Shown one piece after another: positions 4,039 through 23,313 of a stretch of 23,313 nucleotides of DNA. The position numbers were made by a program, and so were the translations under genes. Where the stretch lies: IMG/VR virus record IMGVR_UViG_2602041905_000003. One strand, given 5' to 3'. The notes beneath the pieces were generated by a model, which saw only the letters and a program-made list of their open reading frames with translations, was not told the origin of the DNA and did not search any database. Source of the stretch: a virus (Duplodnaviria; Heunggongvirae; Uroviricota; Caudoviricetes). Positions within the stretch are counted from its first letter, which is position 1. Every line of letters starts with the position of its first letter.

Positions 4039-4178
4039 TGACCCAACGATGGGTTAATTCGCTCGTTGTGGTAGTGAGATGAAAAGAGGCGGCGCTTACT
4101 ACCGATTCCGCCTAGTTGGTCACTTCGACGTATCGTCTGGAACTCCAACCATCGCAGGCTGAGAGGTCTGCAAAATGC

Positions 4179-17528: not shown

Positions 17529-18944
17529 ATGGCTACGTGGCAACAGGGTATTAATTCTGGTGGTTTTCTGGCTGGCATCGGTACGCAAAATGAGAATGCG
17601 CCAAAGGCAAGCGACATTAACGCAACGCTTGGTCTGATCCGCGAAAACAATGAACTGGCTCGCTCAGGTGCAAATAACATTGGTCTGACCGCGTTACGTG
17701 GTCTGGCTGGAGTTGCTGATATTTACAATCAGGAACAGCAACAGAAAGCTATTAGTGCGTTCAATAAGGTTCACGCTGATGCATGGGCTTCTGGTGATCC
17801 ATCTGGACTATTTAAGTTTGCCCAGGAAAATCCAGCGTTTGTTGCACAGGCACAACAGGCGTTTTCCGGTCTTAATGAGCAGCAACGCAACGATATGGGC
17901 GATTTAGCCATGAGGGCTAACGTCGCTCTTTCCCAGGGACCGGAAGCCTACAGTAAATTCATTACTGACAACAAGGACAGGTTAAATCGCGTGGGGGCGA
18001 ATGCTGACTGGATGATTCAGACAGGTATCCAGAATCCAGAGCAGCTATCACACATGCTGACTACTATGTCTCTCGGTGCGCTTGGACCAGAAAAGGCGTT
18101 TGCTGTTCAGGACAAGATGGCTGGTCGTGAAATTGACCGAGGCAAACTGGCAGAGACAATCCGCAGCAATCAGGCTGGAGAAGCACTTCAGGCGAGAGGG
18201 CAAAACCTTTCCTATCAGTCAGCAATGACTGGGCACAATATCGCAGCACAACGCTTGGCTCTGGATCAGCAAGAGTTCGGGTTTAAGATGCAGCAAGCGC
18301 AGGAAAAGGCTCAGCAGTTGATTAGTGAAGCACCTAAGCTGTCAGTAAACATGGAAAAAGGCATCGAGACGGCTGTAAACAATGCCACAGCATCATCAAA
18401 CTCAGCCAATTCTATGAGTGCGCTTGCTCAACAGTTCAGAGCAGAAAAACCAACGACAGGTTTGTTCGGTAACGCACAGAACATGTTCGCAAAACTTACC
18501 GGAAGCGATACGACATTGCGTGATTTGCGCATCCGCCAAAATGCCCTTGTTAACAGTCAGGTTCTTAAATTCCTACCTCCCGGCCCAGCAACGGATAAAG
18601 ACGTTGAGATCGTTCGACAGGGTGCGCCAACTGACATGGATAACCCTGAGACGGTCGCAAGATGGCTTGATGCAATGGCAAACCTTGAGCGACGAAACGC
18701 GCAGTTTAATGAGTTTAAAGCCGAGTGGATGAGCGCGAATGGCAACCCTGGACAATCGCGTAATGGCGGTCAGATATTGGGGTTGGATGTTAAAAAAGGT
18801 GAATCACTGGGGAGTGCCGTTAAGCGGTATATGTCAATGAATACTGACGCAGCGCCAGCACAAGATTCGACACCTTCAGGAGAACCACGGAATCAGGTTG
18901 GATCATATACCTCAAAATCAGGCATTCAATTTACGGTGGAATGA
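17529..18944 (+). CDS. Ejection protein, P22 gp20-like
   Basis: 471 aa, same length and position as P22 gp20. Confidence 0.8.
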
Positions 18945-20770
18945 TGAAAGTAACTGCAAACGGTAAGACATTTACCTTTCCTGATGGTACGAGCACCGAA
19001 GATATTGGGGCCGCCATTGATGAGTATTTTGCTGGTCAGGCTGTTCAGCAACAAACAGTTAATCAGGCCAATAATGCACCAACACGGGAAGAACCATCAT
19101 TGATGCAACAAGCTGGCGATTGGCTCACAGGTGGTCAAAGTGCAGGGCAAATTGCAGAACAGGCTGGTCGTGGTCTGGTAAACATACCATTTGACGTATT
19201 GCAGGGTGGCGCAAGTCTGATTAATGCAATCAGTCAGGGGCTTGGTGGTCCAAAAGTATTGGATGATGTCTATCGTCCAGTCGATCGACCGACAGACCCT
19301 TATGCGCAAACTGGAGAAACAATTGGCGGGTATTTAGTTCCAGGAGTTGGAACGGCAGGAAGCATGGCTATTGGATCACTGGCAGAGGCCGCAAATCAGA
19401 AAGGCGATTTCGCACAAAATGCAGCAAAAAATGCCGGAGTTAACCTTGCCGCTCAGGGGGTTCTTTCCGCAGCAGCAAAGGGAATAGGGCGTGGAATAAC
19501 GGCTATAAAAGGTGATATTGCGCCAGAAGTGGCGAAGAAAATTGCCACATCAGAATCGATGGGCGTGACACCAATGACATCTGATGTTATCCCGCCGAAA
19601 AATGCTTTCACTCGCGGCCTTACTCAGGATGCCGAGGGGGCTTTGCTCGGGACAGGTTCAAAGCGTGCGGAGCAATATGCAAAAAGAAGTCAGCTAGTTA
19701 AAAAACAGCTTGAGAAATATGGTGAATATAGCCCATCAGTTGTTGTTGACGATCTGTATGGTTCTCTGAAGTCAAGGAAGGATTCAGCTGGAAGCGTTAT
19801 TGAAGACATTACAACTAAAATGGGAGATACACCTGTTGACACATCAAAATCCATTAAGGTTATCGACAACGTGCTTACCAGGGCTAACAGGCTTGGGAAA
19901 GTGGCAAATAAGGATTTGATTCGCGGGCTATCCGATTTGCGAGAAGAGCTTGCTAAACCAGATGTAGATTTTGGACTATTGAGAGAGTTGCGGTCAGCAT
20001 TAAGGGAAAGTATTCAGGGAGATGCCATGGTTTTTCCTAATAGCGCGAAAGCCGCAACTGATGCCGTGGAGAGGGCAATGGGTTCAGATTTGAGGAATAA
20101 CGCAGCACGGTATTTGGGGGCTGGAGAGGCTGCCAGATACGTCAAAGCAAACTCTGACTACTCCAACGTCTTCAATAAGGTTCTCAATAAAAGGATTGCG
20201 AACAATCTCAACAAAGCTAAAAAAGAGTTTACTCCAGAGCTAATAAACAGCGTTGTATTCAGCAGAAAACCATCAGATATTAAGAGGATATGGCCTGCTC
20301 TTAGTGAAGATGGAAAGAACGCTATGCGTGCTGCTTATATTAGCAAGATTGCAGAAAAGGCAGGAGACTCGCCAACAAAATTTCTTACCGAGTTAAATAA
20401 GTTGAAGTCGCAATCTGACGGTCAGATATATAACACGATATTCAGTGGGAGACACATGAAAGAGCTTGATGCTCTTCATGAAGTTCTACAGCAAACAGCA
20501 AGGTCAGACATCGCAAATGTTGTAACTCAGACAGGGCAATCGCAAGCCAACAGGATAAGGACGATTGGCGCAACTGCGACTCTTGGGGCAACACTGGCGC
20601 TTGAATCTGGTTTCGGTACAATGATGCGCCTGTATGAGTCCAAAGCAACAAGGAATGCGCTCTTACGTCTGGCAAACACTAAAGCTGGAACGCCAGCTTA
20701 TGAAAGAGCGCTGAATAATGCTGCGAATGCCATCAGACCGCTGTTTGCTACTGAGGCAACACAGCAGTAA
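18941..20770 (+). CDS. Ejection protein, P22 gp16-like
   Basis: 609 aa, same length and position as P22 gp16; ATGA overlap with upstream gene. Confidence 0.8.
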
Positions 20771-20794
20771 CGTATGGGTAATTGGATTCAATCG

Positions 20795-21184
20795 TTAACA
20801 TTTTCTTTTTACTTTTCCAACAAAAGCTTTGGTTGAATCCATATTTCCATAACCGGAAATGGTTTTTGACATTAAAACTGTTCCAGTAGGATGTATTACC
20901 CATGAGTCGATAACGCGTTGAGTTTCGCCATTTGCGCCGATTCCTATGATGGAGTTTTTAGACAATGCTTTGTAAGCCATGCCGCCCGCATCTGCCCCAG
21001 AATATGTGATGCTGGCATCTTCACCGCTTGTCTTAATGATGAATGTTCCACTAAAACCATCTTCTTCTGGTTGGAAATTATTTCGTTCTGAATAGCTTAT
21101 TCCGCGCATATCTCCAACTACCCAGCACTCTGCTGTAGCCCCAAAAGATATGAATAAGAACATAGCAGCAAGAAATTGCCTCAC
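20795..21184 (-). CDS. Secreted (periplasmic) protein of unknown function, 129 aa; accessory/moron gene
   Basis: GTG start with AGGAGG Shine-Dalgarno 5 nt upstream on the - strand; N-terminal signal peptide (MRQFLAAMFLFISFGATA with AxA cleavage site before ECW); AT-rich; convergent with gp16. Confidence 0.6.
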   Translation of the reverse strand: MRQFLAAMFLFISFGATAECWVVGDMRGISYSERNNFQPEEDGFSGTFIIKTSGEDASITYSGADAGGMAYKALSKNSIIGIGANGETQRVIDSWVIHPTGTVLMSKTISGYGNMDSTKAFVGKVKRKC

Positions 21185-21552
21185 ACCAACCTCCTTAGTT
21201 TTGCTCAGGATACCAGATGATACTTTATTGGTGGAGTGGTGTGTGAAAACGTGTCAACGACAAACCATCCACAACCTGGACGAATGATTTAGCAAAAAGT
21301 GCTATTTTTGGTGTTTGGTGTCATAGAAAAGTGAATAGCTCACTTTTCAACATTGCATGAAACTTGCAGGAAATGTGACATTACCTTATAGGTAACTTCG
21401 GCGAAAATGCAGTAAATGTGAAACGTAATGATTTAAACGTGTCGAGAAAGTGGTTGTAAGTTAGCCTCTGAAGGATTGATGACAGCTTTGTTATGGTATT
21501 AAATGCAACTTGACACAGTTGTATACATAGCTGCGGCTATCAAGATGGAGGT

Positions 21553-22002
21553 ATGTTTATGCTCACTTGTTTTGATGTCGCCGACTACTTCTTGGCGCAT
21601 TGCGATGAAGAAAGTGGCGACATTATCTCTAACCTAAAAATTCAGAAGTTGACGTATTATGCCCAAGGGTTTTCTCTGGTTCTTCTGGGTAAGCCGCTAT
21701 TTAATGAGAAAATTGAAGCCTGGATGCATGGGCCAGTAGTTCCTGAATTGTATCGTAAATATAGGGACTGTGGTAACGGAGCTTTACCTGCGCCAGAAAA
21801 CTTTGACGCTAAAAAATTCAGTGAAGATGAAATTGAATTGCTGGATGAGGTGTATAAAGTTTATGGTCAGTTTTCTGCCTGGAAACTGCGCAATATGACT
21901 CACGAAGAGCAGCCATGGAAAGATGCTTACATTGAGGGTGCGGTTAGCCAAGAAATCACACTTGATTCTATGAAAGGTTTTTTCAAAACGTTAATTAACT
22001 GA
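21553..22002 (+). CDS. Panacea-domain protein (DUF4065; GepA/SocA/PanA-like phage-associated antitoxin-type protein)
   Basis: Translation MFMLTCFDVADYFLAHCDEESGDIISNLKIQKLTYYAQGFSLVLLGKPLFNEKIEAWMHGPVVPELYRKY follows the conserved pattern I recall for COG3600/DUF4065 (...KLQKLLYFAQG...G.PLF...IEAW..GPV.P.VY). GGAGG at 21547-21551 suggests the real start may be the second ATG at 21559. Confidence 0.8.
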   Translation: MFMLTCFDVADYFLAHCDEESGDIISNLKIQKLTYYAQGFSLVLLGKPLFNEKIEAWMHGPVVPELYRKYRDCGNGALPAPENFDAKKFSEDEIELLDEVYKVYGQFSAWKLRNMTHEEQPWKDAYIEGAVSQEITLDSMKGFFKTLIN

Positions 22003-22007
22003 CGTGT

Positions 22008-22430
22008 ATGTCTAGAGTTAAGGGAAGAATAAAACAGAGGGATAAAGAGAGCTCTGCTACTGTTGGCCTCTCTATCCATCACGAATCTCATGATGTAGAC
22101 AAAAGTCCGCCTGTATTTTCTCTTAGATACCTACAAAAGGGGTATTGCCTAGATTGCTGCCAAAAGCATGAAAAGGCAGCATTTGCAGATAGGCTGTTCA
22201 GGTTAAGTCAGATGTCATGGGATGAGATACGAAAATCTGATAAACACGGGCTTGGGACGGAAAAAATTGCCAGAAACGCGATAAAGGCTCCGATTCCTAA
22301 GCATGTTACTCAAGATGTGGATTTCATTGCGTTCAGATTTTGCTCTAAGGCACCTATGGTTGGTTATAAGATAGGAGCCACTTTTTATGTCTTATGGCTC
22401 GACAGGGAGTTCAAGCTATACAAGCACTAA
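22008..22430 (+). CDS. Unclassified 140-aa protein co-transcribed with the Panacea gene (candidate toxin/effector partner)
   Basis: ORF begins 5 nt after the Panacea gene stop, same strand, followed by a strong terminator. No family recognised; start codon uncertain (no clear Shine-Dalgarno). Confidence 0.55.
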   Translation: MSRVKGRIKQRDKESSATVGLSIHHESHDVDKSPPVFSLRYLQKGYCLDCCQKHEKAAFADRLFRLSQMSWDEIRKSDKHGLGTEKIARNAIKAPIPKHVTQDVDFIAFRFCSKAPMVGYKIGATFYVLWLDREFKLYKH

Positions 22431-22432
22431 TA

Positions 22433-22458
22433 AAACCCACCGTCAGGTGGGTTTTTTA
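22433..22458. terminator. Bidirectional intrinsic terminator between convergent accessory operons
   Basis: aaacccacc-gtca-ggtgggttt perfect hairpin with A-run on 5' side and T-run on 3' side; lies between the + strand Panacea operon end (22430) and the - strand ClpP-like gene end (22483). Confidence 0.8.
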
Positions 22459-22482
22459 TAAGGAGTAATCATGATTTACCCA

Positions 22483-23019
22483 TCAAACAACCCACCAGTT
22501 TGCCTGATTGGATGCCAGCCTTGCAGTTTTTATGGAATTAATTATGCCATGCTCAAGAGCCTTGTTAGCATCCAAAATGGTCGAGTCTGCTATCAGGGAT
22601 GCCCACCTAATATGGGTTCCGATGTCGATATTGAACGTCTCAACGAAGCGATCAAGATCGTTATCGAGGCATTTCCCGTACTCTCTCAATCTGGCATGGT
22701 CGGCGGCTGGGGAGGCAAAGCCCCATAATAGAGGATGTAACAGGAATCTTGATAATGGGTTTGCGAAACGTTCTGAGCCAGCCAGGAAAACGATATTAGC
22801 TATGGATTCAACATTGCTTATGTTGTGAGTTCTAACGGTAACAGGGAGTGACTTAAGAAAGTTATACGCAGTAAAGCCAGCGGCAGTTTCCCCTCCCTGA
22901 CTTGATATATGGATATTTAATTCAGTTGCGCCTTGAGATAATGCGGTGAGACAGTGGTTCTGAAGTTGCCCAACAGTGGCAGTGTTAACGGGGCATAAGA
23001 AATGAATTGTGTGCAGCAT
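22483..23019 (-). CDS. ClpP-fold serine protease-like protein (truncated S14-type, 178 aa)
   Basis: Translation aligns by eye with E. coli ClpP core: IHISSQGGETAAG vs INSPGGVITAG; NVESIANIVFLAG vs GQAASMGAFLLTAG (Ser retained); RFANPLSRFLLHPLLWG vs RFCLPNSRVMIHQPLGG (His retained); later Asp retained. Lacks about 60 N-terminal residues of canonical ClpP. ATG overlaps the upstream RHH gene stop (TAATG). Confidence 0.75.
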   Translation of the reverse strand: MLHTIHFLCPVNTATVGQLQNHCLTALSQGATELNIHISSQGGETAAGFTAYNFLKSLPVTVRTHNISNVESIANIVFLAGSERFANPLSRFLLHPLLWGFASPAADHARLREYGKCLDNDLDRFVETFNIDIGTHIRWASLIADSTILDANKALEHGIINSIKTARLASNQANWWVV

Positions 23020-23267
23020 TATTTTTCATCCTTACCATACATGGTCTTTAGCGTCTCAAGCAGCGCCTCTTTGAATTTGTCAGCTTCTTGCTGAGCAAAT
23101 GACTCAACTGACTTTGGCGACCTATCTTCATCAATCGCGGCTTGCAAAATCATGACGATCTCGGAGTTAACAGAGCGACCATTTTTTGATGCTCTGACAG
23201 CAAGAGCCTCGCGTAAAGATTCAGGGATTCTTACCGTAGTTGGAGAAATTGACACACCCTTTGCCAT
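23019..23267 (-). CDS. Ribbon-helix-helix transcriptional repressor, Mnt/Arc-like
   Basis: 82 aa; N-terminal ...TVRIPESLREALAVRASKNGRSVNSEIVMILQAAIDE matches the Arc/Mnt RHH signature (NGRS.NSE) and is Mnt-like in length; AAGGTG Shine-Dalgarno upstream on the - strand. Confidence 0.8.
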   Translation of the reverse strand: MAKGVSISPTTVRIPESLREALAVRASKNGRSVNSEIVMILQAAIDEDRSPKSVESFAQQEADKFKEALLETLKTMYGKDEK

Positions 23268-23313
23268 ATCACACCTTTGGTATTCAATTTGATATCAAAG
23301 TGTATGCAAAAAA

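Follow-up and report, generated by a model that had tools for sequence, protein, structure and literature searches.

A Hex-family gene in the sieA slot of a P22-like prophage encodes a predicted periplasmic protein and candidate superinfection-exclusion factor

The DNA examined here is IMG/VR record IMGVR_UViG_2602041905_000003, a stretch of 23,313 nucleotides (nt) that we call the window; it is a P22-like (Lederbergvirus) prophage. On its minus strand, at positions 20795-21184, is an open reading frame (ORF) for a 129-residue protein. Sequence comparison identifies this protein as a divergent new member of the family of phage 434 Hex, placed in the slot that P22 gives to its superinfection-exclusion gene sieA. 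With modest confidence, we read the product as a Hex-family superinfection-exclusion factor that the prophage expresses and that acts in the periplasm, its gene having been swapped into the sieA slot. This reading offers a candidate function for a 'hypothetical protein' of about 3% of complete Escherichia coli genomes and several Salmonella phages, and it links two classic lambdoid exclusion loci that had stood apart, 434 hex and P22 sieA.

A divergent member of the Hex family

A preliminary description of this gene, made from the sequence alone, had seen no recognisable family in its product. The product belongs to PHROG 2651, the family of Hex and Sf6 gp38 (E=2.4e-60 over residues 14-129), and BLASTP aligns it end to end with 434 Hex at 27% identity (E=2e-12). 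Searching all phage records with tblastn returned five records that represent three phages: the Salmonella phages Emek and ST-35, which carry near-identical genes, and HK446, whose gene is distant (E=8e-6). Phages P1 and T4 gave no match at E<=1e-5 in this search. Sf6 gene 38 and the genes of HK633, Sf101, Huey and 434 encode proteins 98-100% identical to that of HK446 (HK446_039). The 434 records label Hex 'repressor protection protein', and the identities establish the branch of HK446, Sf6 gp38 and 434 as hex, the 'heterologous exclusion' gene.

Both branches, that of the window and that of Hex, fall in a single family alignment. A 66-member profile matched 187 cluster representatives among 1.8 billion proteins, and the full-length matches are nearly all single-domain proteins of about 120-150 residues. 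The window protein had no match in Pfam (E<=10), NCBIfam or PADLOC, and a profile search of PDB sequences gave nothing under E=0.6.

The branches differ in genomic position. Genes of the Hex branch lie directly downstream of a gene for a 210-residue cI repressor. In 434-type phages, Sf6, E. coli, Enterobacter and Yersinia, the cI stop codon overlaps the start codon of the Hex-branch gene; the Citrobacter gene begins 5 nt after the 210-residue cI. The window branch is found in the sieA slot in E. coli, in Salmonella phage Emek and in a 66%-identical relative. The repressor of the window prophage has 228 residues, and no hex follows its gene. The cI-linked position, which the window gene does not share, belongs to the hex locus and not to the protein family as such.

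An Aeromonas member of the family (P0087; loci L012-L015) is encoded at the edge of an integrated element, beside an integrase or resolvase; no cI repressor gene adjoins it, and it is not part of a late operon of the P22 type. In phage Huey (PQ850609.1), the Hex orthologue is labelled 'PagP lipid A acylation protein', a name that was probably assigned in error to a small soluble barrel on the basis of its fold.

The sieA slot and its leader

That the gene sits at the position of sieA, as had been proposed, is borne out by alignment with P22. The 34-nt leader, its Shine-Dalgarno sequence and its GTG are those of P22 sieA, except for two variable bases after TGGTATCCTG (AG here, CA in P22). The gene is convergent with a homologue of gene 16, and the distance of 24 nt between the two stops given earlier is exact; in P22, sieA and gene 16 are likewise convergent, with 22 nt between stops. 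A putative promoter upstream matches the annotated PsieA of P22 in both geometry and position (TTGGTA, 19 nt, TTTCAT; 30-60 nt upstream of the start). An automatic promoter scan limited to spacers of 16-18 nt found no site here. P22's own PsieA region lies upstream of five of the 24 Hex-like genes among the IMG/VR matches listed, and it is also found in E. coli strain A26. Immediately before the putative promoter is a terminator-like hairpin, which could shield the gene from minus-strand transcription arriving from further upstream. We consider it probable that the gene is expressed from the prophage.

Comparison with E. coli genomes shows homology to the ORF module stopping at 21215-21222 and homology to the upstream module, which carries a Panacea-domain gene, starting at 21181. 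The two homologies overlap across the leader, which marks the leader as a recombination joint.

An exact scan of IMG/VR for the leader found at least 120 contigs. Among the matches listed, to which all counts of leader families refer, 118 complete ORFs start at the GTG of the leader and fall into 12 unrelated families. The largest is a membrane-anchored coiled coil of 107 or 109 residues (29 ORFs), followed by the Hex-like family (24), SieA (11), two-helix membrane proteins of 62 residues (10) and 75 residues (9), and a second anchored coiled coil of 109 residues (8). The remainder are a 116-residue three-helix protein (6 ORFs), a 149-residue anchored protein (5), a 140-residue protein that is apparently cytoplasmic (5), an anchored protein of 103 or 106 residues (4), a 99-residue signal-peptide protein (4) and a 68-residue YobH-like protein (3), which also occurs in one E. 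coli genome. An N-terminal hydrophobic segment, either a signal peptide or a membrane segment, is present in 11 of the 12 leader families, compared with one of the 32 other genes of the window. At least six promoter-region variants assort freely with the cassettes.

A blastn search located the leader in 73 named phage records, including P22 (before sieA), epsilon34 (gene 14), HK620 (hkcB/hkcC) and phiv205-1. An exact scan of a one-genome-per-species collection found none, and the leader seems to be confined to P22-like phages and prophages that are absent from those representative genomes. Genes for envelope proteins are thus exchanged in the sieA slot, and each is joined to the leader exactly at the start codon. 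Villafane et al. remarked on a high flux of the ant moron (PMC2629481); in the literature searched we found no description of the shared leader and no later work on Hex. The dozen alternative genes that share the leader, nearly all of them envelope-targeted, form a catalogue that can be screened for exclusion of P22-like phages, an aim of relevance to phage therapy and to the typing of E. coli, Shigella and Salmonella.

Several further observations concern this slot. The motif CCATCC(A/G)TGG stands directly after the stop codon, and before the stop of gene 16, in seven of the 12 cassette families; in an eighth it lies 6 nt further on, and the Hex-like cassette lacks it. It is possibly a second conserved joint or a small bidirectional hairpin. 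One stretch of an IMG/VR contig (L089) carries the leader twice on the same strand, at 2339-2372 and 4104-4137, 1.7 kb apart, the first copy leading into a Hex-like gene and the second into the 149-residue family, which is either a tandem arrangement or an assembly artefact. In phiv205-1, which is the phage most similar overall to the window and lacks the Hex-like gene, the leader is followed by an unannotated stretch (L003 23631-24212); a different, uncalled cassette gene probably lies behind it.

Reading frame, export and predicted fold

The ORF is real. It is under purifying selection, with a ratio of nonsynonymous to synonymous substitution rates (dN/dS) of 0.28 against the Emek gene; against the 66%-identical gene of locus L011, the proportions of nonsynonymous and synonymous differences are 0.19 (pN) and 0.85 (pS), the synonymous sites being saturated. 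The gene is carried by 147 of 5426 complete E. coli genomes, always on the chromosome and nearly always in single copy, and it is intact in 146. The 861-bp stretch tested around the ORF is 100% identical in E. coli PA45B.

The strong AGGAGG site already described is part of AAGGAGG, 5 nt before a GTG; the start codon itself had been left unstated. This GTG is favoured as the start by homologues that have ATG at the aligned position, by the Shine-Dalgarno spacing and by the identity of the leader with that of sieA. The RefSeq/PGAP gene model begins at Met8 and gives 122 residues (E. coli loci L004, L005 and L006). Because it cuts the n-region off the signal peptide and ignores the sieA-type GTG, it is probably a mis-start.

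The signal peptide and export proposed in the preliminary description have held up across the family. Our call is based on sequence features and family conservation. The precursor begins MRQFLAAMFLFISFGATA followed by ECW, with an n-region containing R2, an h-region of 11 residues (F4-F14), and A16-T17-A18 preceding E19. Conservation was counted over 200 full-length homologues (199 for some features). Cys20 is present in all 200, an aromatic residue (Trp, Tyr or Phe) at position 21 in 188, and a C-terminal Cys in 190. Of 199 homologues, 198 have a hydrophobic core on the N-terminal side of this Cys20, and 195 have Lys or Arg ahead of that core. Two residues before the Cys, at the -1 site, is Ala, Ser or Gly in 179 of 199, and four before it is mostly Ala, Ser, Val or Thr. 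Cys20 is in most members directly preceded by Glu, Asp, Asn or Gln (also Lys), which indicates a signal-peptidase I site and not a lipobox. A lipobox-like context occurs in just 3 of 199 members, and a lipoprotein was rejected on this count. The conserved signal peptide, signal-peptidase I site and Cys pairs make the family look periplasmic, and we regard Sec export of the window protein as very likely.

The mature protein has a mass of 11.9 kDa and, as had been remarked, is rich in Gly, Ser and Thr (together 31.5% of its 111 residues). The structure prediction proposed as a check was made with AlphaFold2 on the alignment. It gives a small soluble meander barrel of nine strands spanning residues 18-128, with a mean predicted local distance difference test score (pLDDT) of 89.8. 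Residues 1-17 are of low confidence (block pLDDT 56-67) and contain an N-terminal helix at 4-10; the barrel begins at residue 18. A closed meander barrel places its last strand next to its first, so Cys20 and Cys129 could staple the model shut with a disulfide that joins these two strands. About 75 distant members have Cys at both positions equivalent to Tyr71 and Gly81 of the window protein, a pair that looks like a second disulfide.

Foldseek searches of BFVD and the PDB gave no match at E<0.001. The structural matches are generic, and membrane and soluble barrels score alike. A resemblance by eye to MliC/PliC-type lysozyme inhibitors ('SxSG..Y / TK') was backed by no search; an inhibitor of this type was set aside for lack of a match to the MliC/PliC or Ivy profiles (Pfam at E<=10, NCBIfam), and the likeness in fold is generic.

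A candidate exclusion factor and its alternatives

Hex has a history in exclusion. According to PMC3564112, lambda-imm434 lysogens of Salmonella exclude P22 and hex- lysogens do not. The gene is co-transcribed with cI from PRM, and by reverse-transcription PCR the PRM transcript extends through hex (PMC3564112). For the sieA slot, Leavitt et al. found that sieA with 85 bp of upstream DNA suffices for exclusion and that SieA, a polytopic inner-membrane protein with 3-4 transmembrane helices and no signal sequence, blocks DNA injection, with escape mutations in gp16 and gp20 (PMC10883804). Taken together, the exclusion of P22 by Hex, the two lysogen-expressed sites, the export signals and the injection block by SieA make a periplasmic exclusion factor the most likely reading. 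An exclusion factor had been raised as an idea in the preliminary description. Hex homology and the envelope character of 11 of the 12 slot families add to it; the phenotype and expression in lysogens are what we infer. We rate an exclusion role for the window protein as slightly favoured.

Under this proposal, the gene would be transcribed in a lysogen from the PsieA-type promoter, antisense to the silent late operon, and translated from the GTG behind its strong Shine-Dalgarno sequence, as the sequence and the identity of the sieA leader show. The precursor would be exported by Sec and, to judge from conserved features, cleaved after Ala18. Oxidation of Cys20 and Cys129 in the periplasm would tie the first and last strands together in an 11.9-kDa soluble barrel, as suggested by the model and the Cys pair. 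The barrel would interfere with DNA delivery by incoming P22-like phages, most plausibly by binding a periplasm-exposed part of the gp7/gp20/gp16 conduit, or else another periplasmic entry component, and the window protein would be a soluble counterpart of inner-membrane SieA. The gp7/gp20/gp16 conduit as the target is a tentative suggestion. The neighbouring gene 16 homologue is one candidate target of genes in the sieA slot.

More speculatively, these ideas might be joined. The Hex family would be widespread periplasmic disulfide-stapled barrels that jam the trans-periplasmic conduit of P22-like phages, and the RecA mechanism published for Hex would be an artefact of an unfolded half-barrel. 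The sieA slot would be an exchange cassette precise to the start codon, and its 34-nt leader would drive 12 or more unrelated exclusion genes, largely uncharacterised, whose products are directed to the envelope. We hold this combined claim to be doubtful as a whole.

Several points weigh against a periplasmic exclusion factor. At 27% identity to Hex, the function of the window protein may have diverged. The predicted promoter is weak by consensus, with its 19-nt spacer. The conduit target is a guess from compartment and genomic neighbourhood. In addition, the sole biochemical study of the family gives Hex a cytoplasmic role in which it blocks RecA-stimulated autocleavage of the repressor (PMC3564112), and the 30-fold induction phenotype reported there is unexplained by a periplasmic protein.

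Among the alternatives, the strongest is that the protein acts on behalf of the host as a lysogenic-conversion factor. Lysozymes, colicins or type VI effectors might be countered by the barrel acting as an inhibitor or an immunity protein, or it might bind a small ligand. Against this, there is no Pfam match at E<=10, MliC/PliC included, and the structural matches are generic. The genetics of the homologue Hex concern phage exclusion, and the one characterised occupant of the slot is an exclusion gene. We therefore judge this explanation unlikely.

The second alternative takes the published Hex mechanism at face value: the window protein would act in the cytoplasm, block RecA-stimulated autocleavage of the prophage repressor and lower spontaneous induction. 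For 434, deleting hex increased the spontaneous release of phage 30-fold when the host was recA+ but not when it was recA-; a fragment of 61 residues, sHex, complemented about 7-fold, and in vitro it inhibited the cleavage of 434 and P22 repressors that RecA mediates (PMC3564112). The tight linkage of the Hex branch to one 210-residue cI type is in keeping with these results. Counter to this, the conserved Sec signal peptide and Cys pairs argue for the periplasm.

The identity of sHex itself also speaks against this mechanism. Shkilnyj, Colon & Koudelka used a 158-residue ORF, whose fusion to maltose-binding protein gave only the approximately 6-kDa sHex (E43-N103), which was purified with guanidine (PMC3564112). 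This ORF starts inside cI, 24 codons upstream of the start of a 134-residue protein (434 hex, L009 2429-2905). In the numbering of the latter, E43 is E19, the predicted signal-peptidase site (between ANS and ECW), and the cloned sHex DNA starts GAATGCTGG, encoding Glu-Cys-Trp. The other end, N103, is N79 and lies in the middle of the barrel, so sHex cannot be a folded domain. Over-expression of full-length Hex was lethal (PMC3564112), as is typical of jammed export. The words 'signal', 'periplasm' and 'membrane' do not occur in the text of the study, and localisation was never considered there (PMC3564112). The family thus poses a specific objection to its sole mechanistic paper: it looks periplasmic, and the 'active fragment' begins at the predicted signal-peptidase site. 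The RecA/repressor model would fit the window gene still less well: this gene is uncoupled from cI and occupies the sieA slot of a prophage with a different, 228-residue repressor. For the window protein we consider repressor protection improbable.

It is very improbable that the protein is an outer-membrane beta-barrel, or a lipoprotein, that hides or changes a phage receptor in the manner of Cor, Llp, TraT or PagP. Proteins of the OmpX, OmpW and PagP type have a mature length of at least about 150 residues, membrane-spanning strands and a C-terminal aromatic beta-signal. The mature protein here has 111 residues, five of the nine strands in the AlphaFold2 model are of 8 residues or fewer, and the chain ends in Cys or Cys-x-x, with no aromatic beta-signal. 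Outer-membrane proteins seldom have a conserved disulfide pair, and the rarity of a lipobox (3 of 199 members) counts against the lipoprotein variant. P22-like phages use O-antigen and not a protein receptor, which also counts against receptor masking. Equally improbable is a silent or decaying passenger ORF, for which the lack of a consensus promoter in the automatic scan (16-18-nt spacers) and the absence of the gene from phiv205-1, the closest phage overall, could be cited, but which is contradicted by purifying selection, by intact copies in 146 E. coli genomes, by conserved structural residues in 187 cluster representatives, and by the strong Shine-Dalgarno sequence with the shared sieA leader.

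Features and neighbouring genes

The coordinates of the gene and its surroundings are collected in Table 1. An Rfam scan of 20000-23313 gave no relevant match.

Table 1. Features of the Hex-like gene and its immediate surroundings in the window
Feature	Position	Strand	Basis
Coding sequence, 129-residue Hex-like precursor	20795..21184	-	ORF listing; GTG start 21184-21182, TAA stop 20797-20795
Signal peptide, codons 1-18 (MRQFLAAMFLFISFGATA), predicted cleavage A18/E19	21131..21184	-	sequence features and family conservation
Mature domain, 111 residues, predicted nine-strand meander beta-barrel, Cys20-Trp21 and Cys129	20798..21130	-	AlphaFold2 and conservation
Shine-Dalgarno sequence AAGGAGG, 5 nt ahead of GTG	21190..21196	-	read from sequence
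sieA leader, 34 nt, TGGTATCCTGAGCAAAACTAAGGAGGTTGGTGTG, ending in the start codon	21182..21215	-	alignment with P22 upstream region
Putative promoter: -35 TTCACA (21247-21242), 19-nt spacer, -10 TATCAT (21222-21217)	21217..21247	-	sequence and P22 alignment; inferred
Terminator-like hairpin just upstream of putative promoter	21265..21283	-	automatic scan
Spacer, 24 nt, between convergent stops of gp16 and the Hex-like gene	20771..20794	.	sequence
Gene 16 homologue (ejection/DNA-transfer protein), convergent neighbour	18941..20770	+	67% identity to P22 gp16 over 609 residues

The divergent neighbour (21553-22002, plus strand) encodes a Panacea/SocA-type antitoxin-domain protein (PF13274, E=2e-24). 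Its partner (22008-22430, plus strand; 140 residues) has weak matches to the MAG6450 family and to the C-terminus of PADLOC NsnC. The two genes probably form a toxin-antitoxin or defence module within the ant moron. Further on, at 22483-23267 on the minus strand, an 82-residue Arc/ribbon-helix-helix protein overlaps by one base with a 178-residue ClpP-like serine protease, called 'head maturation protease' in phiv205-1. This unusual pair replaces mnt in the immI region. In E. coli ETEC4071 (L008 515-3873), a pseudogene annotated as 'lytic transglycosylase domain-containing protein' stands at the position of gene 16, and about 1.6 kb between it and the Panacea gene is unannotated.

Comparison with known systems

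Exclusion proteins that act on DNA entry beyond the cytoplasmic membrane have precedents in P1 Sim and T4 Sp and Imm. Sim is a periplasmic protein processed at its signal peptide, and Sp inhibits the cell-wall hydrolase of the incoming phage. These proteins come from unrelated phage groups, and their resemblance to the window protein is functional only. T5 Llp, Cor of phi80 and N15, TP-J34 Ltp and HK97 gp15 are envelope proteins of prophage morons that block related phages, as cited in PMC10883804. They are lipoproteins or membrane proteins, whereas the window family has no lipobox and no transmembrane segment after cleavage.

Among the known systems, the homologue is 434 Hex. The two proteins share PHROG 2651, a signal peptide, an x-Cys-Trp mature N-terminus, a C-terminal Cys and a length of about 130 residues, and each is encoded in temperate phages of lambdoid or P22-like type, at a lysogen-expressed site. 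They differ in that hex adjoins cI and is transcribed from PRM, whereas the window gene stands alone in the sieA slot of the ant moron behind the sieA leader. Their sequences are highly diverged, and the published cytoplasmic mechanism of Hex is at odds with the export signals of the family.

By position, the counterpart is P22 SieA. A homologue of SieA was considered and rejected, as there is no sequence similarity (BLASTP against P22 SieA, E=2.2). SieA is polytopic in the inner membrane; the window protein has a single N-terminal hydrophobic segment followed by an all-beta domain and is predicted to be a soluble beta-barrel with a cleaved signal. The two nonetheless have in common the slot, the leader, the Shine-Dalgarno sequence and the GTG, and in some prophages an identical PsieA region as well. 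Both are encoded by prophages, and both are placed in the envelope, SieA by published work and the window protein by prediction.
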